A stretch of 4,462 nucleotides of DNA, taken from IMG/VR virus record IMGVR_UViG_2778261594_000004, positions 1 through 4,462 of that record, one strand, 5' to 3'. Positions 1 through 4,462 of the stretch are shown here, in pieces. Each line of letters starts with the position of its first letter. Position 1 is the stretch's first letter. The notes under the pieces are model-generated. The model made no database searches, was not told the origin of the DNA, and saw only the letters and a list, made by a program, of their open reading frames with translations. Origin of the DNA: a virus (taxonomy: Duplodnaviria; Heunggongvirae; Uroviricota; Caudoviricetes). The translations under genes and the position numbers were made by a program.

Positions 1-214
1 CAGCCATACTTACCGCCGCGCCATTTCGCGGATTGCCACAACCGGAAGCGCACGATCGAATTAAATTTAACGACGACATATACAGAGAGACTAACTTCGC
101 CGTGCGCTTTCGTGTTATGCCCTGACTTTTCAGGGATATGTTCTTTCAGTAAACTGTCAGTGCCGGATTCTTATCCGTGTCCGGCGCACGTGCTCTACCT
201 CACCCGTGAATAAA

Positions 215-601
215 TTAATGATTAATTGATATTTTGTTGTTTGATTCAACTTTCCCATCGGATGTGTGATGCTTTAAATCACAGGAGTTAATACTGCTTG
301 CTGTAAAATGATTTTCAAGGGGAGCTATTCGAATCCCTTTCTTTTTCATTAACAAGCCAAATCCTTTATTAATGATGTCCATTAATTCCAGAAAGTATTT
401 TTCATGTAAATCCTGTTTATCAGAGAGCTGCTTCTCTTCGTACAGCCCGATAAAAGCTCGGCGTACGTTACCGGATATATTATCGATGGTTTCTTTTTCT
501 ACGGTACTCAGGTCAAGAGTGGCCAGTTGAGAACGAACTATATTCGCAGCCATTTCCTGGAATGGTAGTGGTAAATCTTTAAATTCCATCGTCAACCTCA
601 T
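215..601 (-). CDS. Hypothetical protein, 124-128 aa, AT-rich accessory gene downstream of cI; function not recognisable
   Basis: Uninterrupted 128-codon ORF in DNA that is only about 25-38% GC in three hand-counted 60-nt stretches (241-420), where stop codons are frequent, so coding is likely. Two in-frame ATG starts: 601..599, which overlaps the TGA stop of the upstream small ORF as TGATG, and 589..587, which has a GAGG Shine-Dalgarno 6 nt upstream. Predicted protein is hydrophilic and K/E-rich with no obvious transmembrane segment. No motif I recognise; not N-like (no Arg-rich N-terminus). Confidence 0.7.
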   Translation of the reverse strand: MRLTMEFKDLPLPFQEMAANIVRSQLATLDLSTVEKETIDNISGNVRRAFIGLYEEKQLSDKQDLHEKYFLELMDIINKGFGLLMKKKGIRIAPLENHFTASSINSCDLKHHTSDGKVESNNKISINH

Positions 602-753
602 CAGTCAGTGTTTCTGGTTAACCAGCGACGCGCGCCAGCTTCAGTTTTAAACGTTTTGCTTCTGGTATACGTCATCGCGGTAAACGTGCCGTCCTGGTTG
701 GGAAACACGCCGCATACCAGAGATTCGTTGTTGCCAAGATTGAGCGTATCCAT
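601..753 (-). CDS. Small hypothetical protein, 50 aa (MDTLNLGNNESLVCGVFPNQDGTFTAMTYTRSKTFKTEAGARRWLTRNTD), first gene of the accessory cassette
   Basis: Hand translation of the minus strand: ATG at 753..751 with GAGG 5 nt upstream, in-frame TAG upstream, TGA stop at 603..601 sharing one base with the ATG of the 128-aa ORF. Missing from the supplied ORF track, apparently because it is short. About 57% GC in a sampled stretch (661-720). Competes with the plus-strand ORF 608..793, which has a GTG start and no SD. Confidence 0.45.
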   Translation of the reverse strand: MDTLNLGNNESLVCGVFPNQDGTFTAMTYTRSKTFKTEAGARRWLTRNTD

Positions 754-928
754 GTTGACCTCATTTACCCTTAACGCCGGGTCGCGGAACTAAAAACCTG
801 CTGCGCTGTTATACAAAGTGTTCCCGCCGTCATGTTCATACGCCTCGGGCTGGCTACTTAACCCCTTGCCACTGCCGGGTAACTCGAAGTATTGCCCTGC
901 ATTCTGTGAAGCGGGGTGGGTTGTAATG

Positions 929-957
929 AATATAAGAATATTTAGTTTTGCCGTCAA
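929..957 (-). promoter_or_regulatory. Putative sigma70 promoter for the accessory cassette, reading leftward
   Basis: Minus-strand -35 TTGACG (957..952), exact 17-nt spacer, -10 TATATT (934..929); predicted start near 922. Overlapped and flanked by two copies of the TGAATATAA-containing repeat element. Confidence 0.5.
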
Positions 958-976
958 GTTGAATATAAATATTTTT

Positions 977-1003
977 AAGGTAAAAGGCCGGCAAAGCCGA
1001 CCT
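977..1003 (-). terminator. Putative rho-independent terminator downstream of cI
   Basis: On the minus-strand RNA, AGGUCGGC-UUU-GCCGGCCU forms an 8-bp GC-rich stem with one G-U pair (1003..985), followed by UUUACCUU. Lies 24 nt after the cI stop. The 3-nt loop and interrupted U-tract make it only moderately convincing. Confidence 0.45.
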
Positions 1004-1026
1004 CTGATTACAGGGCAAAGCGGGAG

Positions 1027-1671
1027 CTAGAGGCTGAACTGAACACCTTTTGCTACAGCAACGATGTTACATTCCGGTGTAAGTAAGGATGATTGATAGC
1101 GTGGGTTAAGGGGGGCTAAGTACACGAGCTTTCCATCAATAACTAATTTTTTTATAGTCATGGATGGTTCGTTTGTGAGTGGATCTGGGACTATTACTGC
1201 GACGATGCTACCATTTTTATATTTTTCGCCAGGCCTCATGATCACTGTGGCTCCAACTGGAATGCTTGGGGACCCTGATGGATTGTGCATAGTATCATCA
1301 GGCATTGAAACGGCAAAATCTCCCTCCTTGACATCAAAGAATGTGGTGATCCTGTCGACATTTCCCATAGTTTTCTCTCCTTTTAATATTAGGAAAGAAA
1401 TCGCTTCTCCCCAAGAAAGGTATGGGATTTGGGTACCTGGATTTTTCTGCACAAGGGATGATTCAGGTGATGATACTCCATACAGGAGATAGGACTCAGT
1501 AGTGCCTAGTGCTAGGGCTAATTTACTAAGAGCTTTGCTACCTGGTTCGTTTAGATCTTTCTCCCAGTATCCTATTGTTACCCCAGTTACGCCAGAAAGC
1601 TTGCCAAGTTCAACTTGGGTCAGACCTTTGTCTTTTCTGAGTTTCTTAAGCCTAATGCCAAGGCTTTCCAT
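1027..1671 (-). CDS. cI: Phage repressor, lambda cI-like (N-terminal XRE-type HTH, C-terminal S24/LexA-like autopeptidase domain)
   Basis: 214-aa ORF with GGGAG SD 6 nt upstream of ATG 1671..1669. The C-terminal 90 aa aligns by eye with lambda cI: AVSM vs GNSM (catalytic Ser), PSIPVGATVIMRPGE vs PSFPDGMLILVDPEQ, TIKKL vs TFKKL (catalytic Lys), LAPLNPRYQ vs LQPLNPQYP, PECNIVAVAKGV vs CNESCSVVGKV. N-terminus has a typical HTH (LTQVELGKLSGVTGVTIGYWEKD). Confidence 0.93.
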   Translation of the reverse strand: MESLGIRLKKLRKDKGLTQVELGKLSGVTGVTIGYWEKDLNEPGSKALSKLALALGTTESYLLYGVSSPESSLVQKNPGTQIPYLSWGEAISFLILKGEKTMGNVDRITTFFDVKEGDFAVSMPDDTMHNPSGSPSIPVGATVIMRPGEKYKNGSIVAVIVPDPLTNEPSMTIKKLVIDGKLVYLAPLNPRYQSSLLTPECNIVAVAKGVQFSL

Positions 1672-1770
1672 TATTTTCTCCCGCGAATTGAATATAAATT
1701 ATTTTAGATTGTATTGACCTAAAAAAAATTACCCTTTAATCTAAAAATACTTAGTTTTAAGGAGGGCGAA
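1672..1770. promoter_or_regulatory. Divergent cI/cro control region (putative PR-like and PRM-like promoters with candidate operator repeats)
   Basis: 99-bp AT-rich spacer between divergent cI and cro starts. Plus-strand -35 TTGACC (1714-1719) with candidate -10 TTTAAT (1735-1740, 15-nt spacer) or TAATCT (1737-1742, 17-nt spacer). Minus-strand TATATT (1696..1691) is a candidate PRM-like -10 with a poor -35. Contains a 9-bp inverted repeat TTTTAGATT (1702-1710) / AATCTAAAA (1738-1746) and one copy of the TTGAATATAAAT element (1688-1699). Exact promoter and operator assignment is uncertain. Confidence 0.7.
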
Positions 1771-1998
1771 ATGCGAGTTGATGAACTTGTCCAGTTTTTT
1801 GGTTCTGTCCAAAGAGTCGCTGATTTTTATGGGGTAACCCGAGAAGCTATATACATGTGGCGTAAGCGTCCCGGCGAAATAGTTCCCAAGGGGAGGGCTG
1901 CTGAAGCAGTTGCATACTCCAAGGGAAAATTATCGTTGAACCCAGAACTTTACAAAAAGAAGGATAACACCTCGAACGAAAGGAAAAATGATTCATGA
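1771..1998 (+). CDS. Cro-like transcriptional regulator (YdaS/Cro family HTH)
   Basis: 75-aa ORF with AAGGAGG SD 5 nt upstream. Divergent from the repressor. The pattern ELxxFFGSxxxVAxxYGVTREAIYMW resembles the YdaS/Cro family as I remember it. Stop overlaps the next gene start (ATGA). Confidence 0.85.
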   Translation: MRVDELVQFFGSVQRVADFYGVTREAIYMWRKRPGEIVPKGRAAEAVAYSKGKLSLNPELYKKKDNTSNERKNDS

Positions 1999-2420
1999 AA
2001 ATCAAACATGAACACATCCGCATGGCGATGAATGCCTGGGCATATCCTGACGGTGAGAAAGTTCCCGCAGCTGAAATAGCCCGGACTTATTTTGAGCTGG
2101 GGATGACGTTCCCGGAACTGTACGACGACAGCCATCCGGAAGCCCTGGCTCGTAATACCCAGAAAATTTTCCGCTGGGTGGAGAAGGACACGTCTGATGC
2201 TGTTGAAAAAATTCAGGCGCTGTTACCGGCGATCGAAAAGGCGATGCCGCCTTTGCTGGTGGCCCGTATGCGCAGTCACAGTTCTGAATATTACCGGGAG
2301 ATCGTCGAACGACGGGATCGGCTGGTGAAAGATGTGGATGATTTTGTCGCTGTAGCGATCGCCTGGGGCACCCTGACTAACAGTGGTGGTCAGCCTGGTA
2401 ATGCAGTTGTTGTGCATTGA
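1995..2420 (+). CDS. CII-like regulator, YdaT-family protein
   Basis: 141-aa ORF beginning MKIKHEHI, translationally coupled to cro-like gene by ATGA overlap at 1995-1998. Position after cro and my recollection of Rac-prophage YdaT (similar length and N-terminus) support the call; family assignment is from memory, not a search. Confidence 0.75.
   Translation: MKIKHEHIRMAMNAWAYPDGEKVPAAEIARTYFELGMTFPELYDDSHPEALARNTQKIFRWVEKDTSDAVEKIQALLPAIEKAMPPLLVARMRSHSSEYYREIVERRDRLVKDVDDFVAVAIAWGTLTNSGGQPGNAVVVH
2255..2262 (+). other. Chi site (5'-GCTGGTGG-3')
   Basis: Exact octamer at 2255-2262 inside the YdaT-like gene. Presence is certain; functional relevance is not. Confidence 0.6.
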
Positions 2421-2488
2421 CCAACAATATTTATACCGGATTTCTTTCGGAAGTTCGTGGGTAAAGTTCGGTATCAGAAGAGGTGAGT

Positions 2489-3520
2489 ATGGCTAATGCC
2501 TGGCTCAGATTGTGGCATGACATGCCAAATGACCCCAAGTGGCGAACGATTGCCAGGGTATCAGGACAGCCAATCGCAACAGTGATGGCAGTGTATATCC
2601 ATCTTCTGGTGAGCGCGTCACGAAATGTCACGACATGTCACGGCGTGTCACTACGTGGTCACATTGATGTCACGACGGAAGATTTAGCAAGTGCGCTTGA
2701 TGTGACGGAAGACGTAATTGATTCAATTTTGCATGCAATGCAGGGGCGGGTTCTGGATGGTGACCTTATTTCCGGATGGGAAAAACGTCAGGTGCTGAAA
2801 GAGGACAATGGTAACGTTTCGCAAACGGCAAAATCCCCGGCAGAGCGCAAGAGAGCGCAGCGGGAGCGGGAAAAGCTGCGGAAACATAATGCTGATTGTC
2901 ACGATGAGTCACGACGTGTCACGCATCTGTCACGACAAGTCACGACAGATAAAGATACAGATACAGAATTAAACCCCACACATAACGCGCGCGAGAGTAT
3001 TCCGACCAGTGAGTCGAATGGTGCGCCGTTGCAGACAGCCGAACCTGAATACCTGGACGGCCTGAGCGAACCGATCGGGAAATTTTCGATGACTACTGTC
3101 TGGCAGCCGTCGCCGGATTTTCGACAACGGGCAGCAGTGTGGGGTATGGCTCTGCCTGAGCCGGAATTTACACCTGCAGAGCTTGCCGCATTCCGGGATT
3201 ACTGGATGGCGGAGGGGAAGGTTTTCACGCAGGTTCAGTGGGAGCAGAAATTTGCCCGCCACGTGCAGCACGTCAGGGCACAGGTAAAACCAGTCAGCAA
3301 GGGGGGAAGTCATGCAGCATCAGGTGGCACGGCATCACGGGCAGTTCAGGAAATCCGGGCAGCACGCGAACAGTGGGAACGTGACAACGGATTTATCAGC
3401 AACGGAAACGGCCTGGAAGCTGTGGGAGCTTATGGGGGAGGTGTATTCGAACCGCTGGACTCAGAAGAACGGGGCCGCACCTTCGAAGCTCTGGATTGCC
3501 CAGATTGGTGCGATGACTGA
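2489..3520 (+). CDS. Phage replication initiator (replisome-organiser-like N-terminal domain, DnaT-like C-terminal region), lambda O functional analogue
   Basis: ORF track starts at GTG 2483; ATG 2489 is more likely (AGAGG 5 nt upstream). N-terminus AWLRLWHDMPNDPKWRTIARV fits the phage replisome-organiser pattern; C-terminal FTPAELAAFRDYWMAEGKVFTQVQWEQKFARHV resembles DnaT-type domains (from memory). Contains iteron arrays internally, as lambda O contains ori. The last ~70 codons (3312-3520) are low-complexity and overlapped by the P-like gene in another frame, so the true 3' end is uncertain. Confidence 0.85.
   Translation: MANAWLRLWHDMPNDPKWRTIARVSGQPIATVMAVYIHLLVSASRNVTTCHGVSLRGHIDVTTEDLASALDVTEDVIDSILHAMQGRVLDGDLISGWEKRQVLKEDNGNVSQTAKSPAERKRAQREREKLRKHNADCHDESRRVTHLSRQVTTDKDTDTELNPTHNARESIPTSESNGAPLQTAEPEYLDGLSEPIGKFSMTTVWQPSPDFRQRAAVWGMALPEPEFTPAELAAFRDYWMAEGKVFTQVQWEQKFARHVQHVRAQVKPVSKGGSHAASGGTASRAVQEIRAAREQWERDNGFISNGNGLEAVGAYGGGVFEPLDSEERGRTFEALDCPDWCDD
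2617..2676 (+). repeat. Iteron array 1: six direct GTCAC(G) repeats at 10-11-bp spacing (putative ori initiator-binding sites)
   Basis: GTCAC units begin at 2617, 2627, 2637, 2647, 2658 and 2669, spaced 10,10,10,11,11 bp, i.e. one helical turn. Core TGTCACG. Confidence 0.6.
2898..2946 (+). repeat. Iteron array 2: five direct GTCACG(A) repeats at 10-11-bp spacing, followed by an AT-rich stretch
   Basis: GTCACG units begin at 2898, 2908, 2918, 2929 and 2939, spaced 10,10,11,10 bp. Immediately followed by 2947-2973 (agataaagatacagatacagaattaaa, about 23% GC), a candidate unwinding element. Confidence 0.6.
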
Positions 3521-3974
3521 ACAGCAAATCCGTCTGGTCTGCCGTCAGTGCATGGACCGCTGCCGGGCGGGTGAAACGTGGCCCCCGGACCTGGCTGAGT
3601 TTGTTGCACTGATTTCGGAGAGTGGGGCAAATCCATTTGGTCTTACGGTGGATGCCGTGATGGAAGAGTACCGGCGCTGGCGCAATGAATCCTGGCGATA
3701 CGACGGGAGTGATAAATACCCGTGGCCACAGCCTGTGCTGTACCACATCTGCCTCGAAATGCGTACCAGAGGGATTGAGCGCCAGATGACGCAGGGTGAG
3801 TTAAAACGACTTGCGGAACGGCAACTGACGAAATGGGCAAAGCATGTTGGTAACGGGATGAGTGTTCCGCCAGTGCGACGACAACTGGAAGGGGCGAAAC
3901 ACCCGCAAGGGCCAACGCCAATTGAACGGCTGAAACAGGAATACGAACGCCGGAAGGCAGCTGGTTTTATTTGA
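3312..3974 (+). CDS. P: Lambda P-like replication protein (putative DnaB helicase loader)
   Basis: Aligns by eye with lambda P: LWIAQIGAMTEQQI vs QWVLAFRENGITTMEQV, PPDLAEFVAL vs PSPGQFVAW, KYPW vs SYPW, MTQGELKRLAERQLTKWAKHVGNGMSVP vs LTDAELRRKAADELVHMTARINRGEAIP. Start is uncertain: ATG 3312 (AGGGGG SD 6 nt upstream, 220 aa, overlaps initiator by 209 nt), ATG 3432, or ATG 3513 (overlaps initiator stop as ATGACTGA, 153 aa). P-like similarity begins upstream of 3513, favouring an earlier start. Confidence 0.8.
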   Translation: MQHQVARHHGQFRKSGQHANSGNVTTDLSATETAWKLWELMGEVYSNRWTQKNGAAPSKLWIAQIGAMTEQQIRLVCRQCMDRCRAGETWPPDLAEFVALISESGANPFGLTVDAVMEEYRRWRNESWRYDGSDKYPWPQPVLYHICLEMRTRGIERQMTQGELKRLAERQLTKWAKHVGNGMSVPPVRRQLEGAKHPQGPTPIERLKQEYERRKAAGFI

Positions 3975-4007
3975 ATCTGAGAAACGATTTTGTCGGAGGA
4001 AATTTTA

Positions 4008-4462
4008 ATGGAAACCGTATTTGACGCACTGAAAGCACTGAAAAAAGCCTCTTCACAGGTAGTGGCGGCCCGCCTTGGAATCAGCCGTGAAGATGCGGTC
4101 AACGAACTGTGGAAACTGAAGCGCCGTGGTGAAGCGGATAACAAGGGGTCGATGTGGTGGCTGACTCAGGCAGGTGAAAGTGAACCAGTGTCACCGGTAC
4201 CGAAAGTGACAGCGCAAATGCTGATTAAGGCGATTGAACAACATGGCCCACAAACGGCAGATGAGCTGGCACTGATGTTCGGGATTACCTCCCGCCGGGC
4301 GAATTCATCGCTGGCCATGGCAATCAGCAAAGGGCGTCTGATTCGCGTGAATCAGGGCGGTAAATTTCGTTACTGCATACCGGGTGCTGATTTACCGGCA
4401 GAGCCGGAAGCTGCATCCGTAGCGGAAACCGATGGTAAAGCCTTTCCTCAGCCAGCAGGTGT
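4008..4462 (+). CDS. Hypothetical protein with two tandem winged-helix-like halves, 3' end outside the window
   Basis: ATG 4008 with GGAGG 8 nt upstream; open to the window end (151 codons). Two internally similar segments (aa ~4-56 and ~68-128), each with a GIS/GIT-R motif typical of small HTH/winged-helix domains. Not in the ORF track because there is no stop in the window. Confidence 0.7.

Follow-up and report, generated by a model that had tools for sequence, protein, structure and literature searches.

In the 4,462-nucleotide stretch of caudoviricete DNA analysed here (IMG/VR record IMGVR_UViG_2778261594_000004, positions 1 to 4,462; hereafter the window), two arrays of the hexamer GTCACG, together with the AT-rich tract that follows the second of them, very probably constitute the origin from which a lambdoid E. 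coli prophage (Rac/lambda type) replicates, lying within the gene of its own initiator. This assignment, which comes from sequence analysis, is supported because the repeats occur far beyond chance, are under selection as DNA and belong to an architecture conserved across genera; because the hexamer tracks the lineage of the initiator N-terminal domain while the downstream partner gene and the C-terminal domain vary; and because the tract past array 2 is the weakest duplex in the gene, with its AT-richness selected. In addition, the order of iterons, A-rich tract and C/G inverted repeat within an interdomain linker matches the origin in P22 gene 18, and the folds of the protein (an N-terminal domain resembling the N-terminal domain of DnaD and RepA_N, and a DnaT-like C-terminal domain) fit an initiator, as do published precedents. 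The origin type is widespread, and we found no earlier description of it: a literature search returned no account of GTCACG arrays, and a paper on the replication regions of Stx phages is silent on iterons.

Phased iteron arrays within an initiator gene

The elements of the candidate origin and the gene that contains them are as follows.

2489-3520, plus strand: initiator gene ('phage replisome organizer'), 343 codons
2617-2674, plus strand: iteron array 1, six direct units, codons 43-62 of the initiator
2701-2706, minus strand: one iteron in inverted orientation, reading GTCACA on its own strand and TGTGAC on the plus strand, about 30 bp past array 1
2898-2944, plus strand: iteron array 2, five exact GTCACG units, codons 137-152 of the initiator
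2945-2972, plus strand: AT-rich, purine-skewed tract ACAGATAAAGATACAGATACAGAATTAA, 28 bp, 25% GC, 71% purine
2973-2996, plus strand: C-rich/GC element ACCCCACACATAACGCGCGCGAGA, at the position of a CCCCC...GGGGG inverted repeat in relatives and in P22

The units of array 1 start at 2617, 2627, 2637 and 2669 (GTCACG) and at 2647 (GTCACT) and 2658 (GTCACA), whereas the five of array 2, at 2898, 2908, 2918, 2929 and 2939, are all exact. An earlier note on this DNA had claimed eleven GTCACG units in arrays of six and five; the arrays stand, but nine of the units are exact and two are one-base variants, all on the plus strand. That note was correct in placing both arrays inside the initiator open reading frame, and the unit positions bear out the shared orientation and the 10-11-bp spacing that it described: the steps are 10, 10, 10, 11 and 11 bp in array 1 and 10, 10, 11 and 10 bp in array 2 (mean 10.3 bp), and Tandem Repeats Finder assigns a period of 10 to both. 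The inverted copy at 2701-2706 is not mentioned in that note. In the window as a whole GTCACG occurs 10 times against 1.69 expected, a number reached in 0 of 200 dinucleotide shuffles, and six pairs of one hexamer phased at 10/11 bp were observed where 300 shuffles gave at most one.

The arrays are separated by 229 bp of ordinary coding sequence at 50% GC, and the hexamers occupy all three codon phases of the initiator gene. Relative to the common four-unit form, array 1 of the window carries a 21-nt insertion of two units and seven codons. Differences in array size come in such 21-nt steps, both in array 1 (window versus phage 640R1) and in array 2 (window versus an Aeromonas phage), one step amounting to two units, two helical turns and seven codons. 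Inter-array distances of 219, 229, 238 and 247 bp appear phased, but these values shift with the counting of degenerate end units.

The encoded protein, named 'phage replisome organizer' at NCBI, is composed of a winged-helix N-terminal domain (residues 1-100), a helix (residues 117-135), a disordered linker (residues 136-198) and a DnaT-like domain (residues 199-266). In the AlphaFold model the predicted local distance difference test (pLDDT) score of the N-terminal domain exceeds 90 except at residues 41-60 (about 71), a β-hairpin or loop of variable length that is encoded by array 1. The codons of array 2 (pLDDT below 50), those of the AT-rich tract (codons 137-162 together with array 2) and those of the element that follows all fall within the linker. 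Beyond it, a three-helix domain at residues 200-266 is modelled with confidence. Because the arrays must also be translated, they are placed in these tolerant segments, the variable hairpin and the disordered linker, and are sized in 21-nt steps. Structure comparison relates the N-terminal fold to the N-terminal domain of DnaD and to RepA_N; no Pfam match was found for this domain (phage replisome organizer, PF09681). The C-terminal domain matches Pfam PF17948 (DnaT single-stranded DNA-binding) with 62.6 bits against a cutoff of 25, and Foldseek aligns it to 4ou6 and 6aeq with template modeling scores of 0.87-0.92 and 54-58% identity, making it a close relative of the three-helix bundle with which E. 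coli DnaT binds single-stranded DNA. The protein is not DnaT itself, since its score against NF002770 is 94.5 for a cutoff of 201, and a Pfam search found no helicase domain in it.

Conservation of the repeats, the architecture and the AT-rich tract

In order to separate conservation of the DNA from that of the protein, a codon alignment of 26 non-redundant genes of the GTCACG clade was used. Hexamer columns are 93.5% conserved compared with 67.5% for spacer columns inside the arrays, and third codon positions are 92% conserved in hexamers compared with 53% elsewhere (p = 9e-9). At conserved residues, a third base that falls in a hexamer belongs to the identical codon in 94% of sequences, against 51% for residues elsewhere (Mann-Whitney p = 1e-7). 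The earlier note had raised the question of whether homologues lose the repeats while keeping the protein; down to about 60% protein identity the hexamers are kept exactly, their synonymous sites frozen, while spacers and ordinary synonymous sites drift. Judged from these alignments, selection on the GTCACG repeats acts at the level of DNA, not of protein. A 10/11-nt period is unable to encode a peptide repeat, and the 'VT/SR/xHx' peptides are thus a by-product of translation: the VT/SR-rich segments read from the arrays in the earlier note are encoded, but only as the outcome of a 10/11-nt repeat passing through three frames.

Homologues were collected by tblastn with the N-terminal 165 residues against phages and by a scan of one genome per bacterial species. 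Phage homologues came from Escherichia (86% identity), Aeromonas (67%), Pseudomonas (60%), Ralstonia (38%) and others, and the genome scan contributed 60 further loci. The two-array plan, with arrays 1 and 2 at about +130 and +390 nt, respectively, and then an AT/purine tract, is kept across about 60 homologous initiator genes (Escherichia, Pseudomonas, Aeromonas, Bordetella, Ralstonia, Burkholderia and other genera) and is present in Escherichia, Aeromonas and Pseudomonas phages and about 50 bacterial genomes. All genes of the GTCACG clade have their arrays at about +128 and +388 nt from the start codon, retain the inverted copy past array 1 (CGTGAC in the consensus of the 26) and carry AGATAAAGATA(C/A)AGA immediately 3' of array 2. 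Array 1 consists of four units at an identical gene offset in the 26 genes, and array 2 of two to six units at about +390 nt in the homologues. Distant clades swap the hexamer for GCAACG (used by Ralstonia phage Hennie and by Burkholderia/Cupriavidus prophages), CGAACG, GTGACG or GTAACG while retaining the 10-11-bp spacing, the two arrays and the purine/AT tract. The single-turn unit and the split into two arrays, which the earlier note had called distinctive, are therefore real, but they are traits of the whole family rather than of the window alone.

In a neighbour-joining tree built from N-terminal domain columns after removal of the array-encoded residues, hexamer types largely follow the clades (GTCACG, GCAACG, GTGACG and CGAACG), with GTAACG scattered. 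The downstream partner gene varies among the same relatives (P-like, DnaB, primase-helicase or 'replicative helicase'), as does the C-terminal domain of the initiator. Of 5426 complete E. coli genomes, 703 contain the module, with a maximum of four copies in one genome; O157:H7 and related strains (H73-H76) have three places that match the N-domain/iteron module. Co-resident prophages with identical iterons could cross-activate or compete for initiator. Hits in a search of plasmids were confined to large replicons that carry integrated prophages and to two phage-like circles of 51 kb from Pseudomonas.

Individual relatives depart from the common form. An Erwinia locus (L030) has overlapping GTCACGTCACGTCACG units at 5-bp spacing, at offsets +159 to +169 and +411 to +421, and in Pseudomonas and Phytopseudomonas (L065 and L069) array 1 is enlarged to 8-10 exact GTGACG units at offsets +139 to +232. 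Phage vB_EcoS-640R1 (L002, 2593-4126) has the N-terminal domain and arrays in common with the window, an initiator C-half without a Pfam match and, after the initiator, LygF in place of a P-like, DnaB or DnaC gene. In Escherichia phage 204576 (L006, 2001-2560) the initiator is frameshifted between the arrays and stops early, with both GTCACG arrays and the AT tract intact; this frameshift may be a sequencing error or mark a pseudogene.

By predicted helical stability, a check put forward in the earlier note, the tract at 2945-2972, presumably the DNA unwinding element, is the weakest 30-mer of the initiator gene (-32.1 kcal/mol; gene mean -42.7, next-lowest value -36.4); that note had given the AT-rich stretch as ~23% GC, whereas the tract is 28 bp long at 25%. 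The intergenic operator regions of the window are even less stable. The GC skew named in the same note as a check gives a negative dip that is only local (2900-2980), a 4.5-kb window being an uninformative scale for skew. Among related loci, the 40 nt following array 2 are AT-rich in 53 of 53 (GC 0.34 versus 0.56 for the gene, p = 2e-10). In genes of at least 55% GC, Asp is encoded by GAT at 92% of tract codons compared with 39% elsewhere (p = 1e-20), and Lys by AAA at 71% compared with 37% (p = 9e-8). This enrichment of AT-ending codons in the tract of GC-rich genes indicates that AT-richness is selected as DNA, at synonymous sites. In some loci the tract following array 2 is made up entirely of a hexanucleotide microsatellite, (AGATAA)8 at gene offset +374 to +417 in L048 and (CAGATA)5 in L037 and L040, read in frame as DK or DT repeats.

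Beyond the tract, a perfect inverted repeat of at least 6 bp is found in 36 of 53 relatives compared with 208 of 540 control segments (p = 5.5e-5). Many loci of the family have a C/G inverted repeat close to that of P22 at this place, such as CCCCCCTTACCCCCCTGAGGGGG in Pseudomonas phage P7869. The C-rich/GC element of the window forms no stable hairpin (folding energy of only -0.3 kcal/mol) and contains no perfect inverted repeat of 5 bp or longer. A terminator-like stem and T-run on the minus strand at 2974-2996 is a weak match that depends on G-T pairs, and its fold as DNA is negligible.

The tract also coincides with a boundary between modules. Phage 640R1 has only the N-half and the arrays in common with the window, Rac-SA53 the AT tract, the C-half and the P-like gene, and the matches of the two groups overlap at 2947-2967. 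The AT tract is thus also the crossover between N-half and C-half modules, as in lambdoid O genes. The ydaU-ydaV region of Rac-SA53 is about 88% identical to the window across the C-half, the AT tract and the P-like gene, whereas its YdaU has a different N-terminal domain (DUF1376) and no GTCACG arrays. Many E. coli entries for the initiator at NCBI (P0001-P0034) are 'partial', 150-290 residues long and on short contigs. The gene appears to be a place where assemblies break, perhaps because several prophages per genome have the C-half in common.

A model for initiation, its precedents and its alternatives

The arrangement suggests a model for how replication could begin. On loss of the LexA-like repressor, rightward transcription would pass through cro, the cII/YdaT-like gene, the initiator and the lambda-P-like loader; the genes lie in this order in the window, and their timing we infer. 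The N-terminal DnaD-like winged-helix domain would bind the GTCACG hexamers and, since the direct repeats are one helical turn apart, monomers would align head to tail on one face of the DNA. Initiator monomers would cover about 50-60 bp per array, and oligomerisation could bridge the two arrays across 229 bp. By analogy with lambda and P22, the complex at array 2, which directly adjoins the 2945-2972 tract, would destabilise and melt it. Going by their protein families, the DnaT-like domain could keep hold of the single strand exposed in this way, and the P-like protein would bring in DnaB of the host.

In both lambda and P22 the origin lies inside the initiator gene, in the linker between a DNA-binding N-terminal domain and a partner-binding C-terminal domain, as does the candidate described here. 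The resemblance extends to a cluster of direct iterons followed downstream by an A/purine-rich tract and then by a P-like or DnaB-type partner gene, and to a division of the gene into one exchangeable module made of the N-half with its iterons and another made of the C-half. The annotated P22 origin in gene 18 has iterons about 20 bp apart, an A-rich run ACACAAAAGACAATATACAAAAGACAATAAATACAAATA and then CCCCCTTACCCCCTAAAGGGGGA, and the C/G inverted repeat after the AT tract is nearly identical in P22 and in relatives of the window, which itself has none. The parallel with lambda ori drawn in the earlier note is well founded: the lambda origin and the annotated P22 origin are both laid out like array 2 with its AT tract and its position in the linker. 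The units of the window differ in being hexamers at 10-11 bp without internal dyad symmetry, compared with sites about 20 bp apart (iterons of about 19 bp) in lambda and P22, and an extra array of the same unit lies 229 bp upstream, within the coding sequence of the DNA-binding domain, along with an inverted copy. Nor is the initiator a homologue of lambda O or P22 gp18: it has no match to the Pfam O family, and BLASTP aligns it to P22 gp18 with E = 7.5.

Other systems resemble the candidate in part. Lactococcal replisome organizers bind direct repeats within their own genes, and these repeats constitute the origin (PMC8965321). The Gram-positive replisome organizers TP901-1 ORF13, Tuc2009 Rep2009 and r1t ORF11 are alike in having repeats in their own gene, and the window initiator has a winged helix like that of the DnaD N-terminal domain; however, the TP901-1 repeats form one mid-gene cluster with a 15-bp period, as opposed to two arrays, a DnaT-like C-terminal domain and a lambda-P-like partner here, and no homology to TP901-1 Rep is detectable. 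The likeness to RepA_N plasmid initiators (pSK41/pTZ2162 RepA, PDB 4pta) is at the level of fold only (about 12% identity), while the iterons, host range and C-terminal domain differ. In the SaPI system the winged-helix domain of Rep recognises penta- or hexanucleotide iterons, and the origin has two sets of such short iterons and an AT-rich melting region (PMC9371898). The SaPI sets, however, flank the AT-rich region in opposite directions downstream of rep, and the initiator is a helicase; in the window the arrays run in the same direction, the AT tract lies past array 2 only, the inter-array DNA has a GC content of 50% and the initiator is without a helicase domain.

Several observations weigh against the assignment as an origin. 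The literature search found no binding or replication experiment on any member of the family, and the plasmid search yielded no minimal replicon built on the module. Most relatives have an inverted repeat after the AT tract, which the window does not. Nothing in the lambda or P22 origins corresponds to array 1, which also has no AT-rich tract adjoining it, and some relatives (L007, L053, L056 and L057) are without this array. The N-terminal domain reaches only 17.1 bits against TIGR01714 (phage_rep_org_N; cutoff 49.8, E = 0.0046), although the alignment covers profile positions 1-118 of 119. A mutual-information scan for specificity residues picked mostly columns adjoining the arrays or in gapped regions and identified none. 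Finally, because the arrays lie inside the gene for the N-terminal domain, their co-inheritance is automatic, and covariation would be equally expected if another linked protein bound them.

In a narrower assignment, array 2 and the AT tract would be the origin proper, and array 1 and its inverted copy would serve in control, by titrating or 'handcuffing' the initiator or by blocking transcription or translation of the gene in which they lie, and would stand outside the unwinding machinery. We consider this possible, if improbable. Copy number in iteron plasmids and phage P1 is controlled through extra iteron arrays, several relatives of the window have array 2 only, and the conserved inverted unit is found beside array 1 alone, which itself has neither an AT-rich neighbour nor a lambda/P22 equivalent. 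Nevertheless, array 1 is conserved as strongly as array 2, and in most clades the two are equal in unit, orientation and spacing. Array 1 could instead contribute cooperatively to the origin, possibly through a loop to array 2.

Two further alternatives would deny the hexamers a role in initiation altogether. They could be sites for another phage or host protein acting in packaging, partition, recombination or transcription control and linked to the initiator gene merely by location; physical linkage by itself would give the clade-wise covariation, and gene modules also recombine at the AT tract. Such a role is very unlikely given that the layout matches known lambdoid origins, including the A-rich tract and C/G inverted repeat, that neighbouring genes vary widely among loci with the same hexamer, that the winged-helix N-terminal domain is the only protein always present with the arrays, and that no DnaA boxes were found near the arrays. 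Less likely again is that the repeats have no function as DNA and reflect a constraint on the protein (a peptide repeat, hairpin or linker) or neutral slippage in tolerant loops. The arrays do fall in protein segments open to insertions and deletions, a variable loop and a disordered linker, and the encoded RG motif (R56, G57) is invariant in aligned homologues and relatives. On the other hand, the 10/11-nt period runs through three frames, synonymous sites are fixed in the hexamers while spacers drift, the plan recurs in other clades with different hexamers and hence different peptides, and selection in the tract favours codons ending in A or T even where the host is GC-rich.

The origin assignment extends the known design of lambda and P22 and does not overturn it. 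We doubt the more far-reaching proposal of a distinct origin design with its own melting mechanism, in which a one-face winged-helix filament would assemble on single-turn hexamers, two arrays would be looped across about 230 bp and an evolvable 'NNNACG' code would switch specificity between very similar initiators. If it were true, these would be naturally orthogonal initiator/origin pairs, and prophages with a common hexamer in one cell, of which there are up to four copies per E. coli genome, could fire each other's origins. The assignment gives a probable origin to a replication module in prophages across Proteobacteria whose genes are now annotated only as 'DnaT-like domain protein' or 'replisome organizer'. 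The module is also a clear case of dual coding: DNA-binding sites run through all three frames of a gene whose own product is presumed to recognise them. Its clade-specific hexamers lead to testable predictions of initiator specificity and are relevant to cross-activation or incompatibility between prophages in one cell and to the recombination points of lambdoid replication modules.

The immunity and replication locus

The window corresponds to the region of a Rac/lambda-type lambdoid prophage that governs immunity and replication. Among complete E. coli genomes, the closest match 92% of it at 98% identity and have their genes in the same order. Apart from the initiator gene, the principal genes are listed below.

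1027-1671, minus strand: LexA/S24-type repressor gene (Pfam/PHROG matches)
1771-1998, plus strand: P22-Cro-like gene (Pfam/PHROG matches)
1995-2420, plus strand: cII/YdaT-like gene (Pfam/PHROG matches)
3432-3974, plus strand, start uncertain: lambda-P-like helicase loader gene (Pfam, PHROG, RefSeq L001)
from 4008, plus strand: DUF1627 gene

The loader matches Pfam Phage_lambda_P (PF06992) with 58 bits against a gathering score of 26, as well as PHROG 109 ('P-like helicase loader'). Its relatives in RefSeq start at ATG 3513, but the Pfam and PHROG matches extend upstream of this position, and the alignment to PHROG 33198 begins at ATG 3432, residue 41 of the long loader open reading frame. With a start at 3432 the loader gene would run, in a different frame, over the 3' end of the initiator gene; the lambda-P-like frame is open from 3312 and overlaps the final 209 nt of that gene. 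PHROG 15931 (profile length 482) spans initiator and P as a single protein, so that some phages have them fused, or have them annotated that way.

No Rfam family match was found in the window, and promoter and terminator scans of it gave matches at chance level. A promoter-like site lies on the minus strand at 957-929, near copies of a TTGAATATAAAT(A/T)TTTTTA-like sequence that flank the repressor gene at 926-977 and 1688-1760 in direct and inverted orientation. These copies look like the OL and OR operators of the immunity region. Farther to the left, the minus strand carries a DUF1391 (YdfA-like) gene at 601-753 and, at 215-601, a gene for a PHROG 6937 protein of unknown function; these small leftward genes at 215-753 are typical early-left cargo of the Rac/Qin type.

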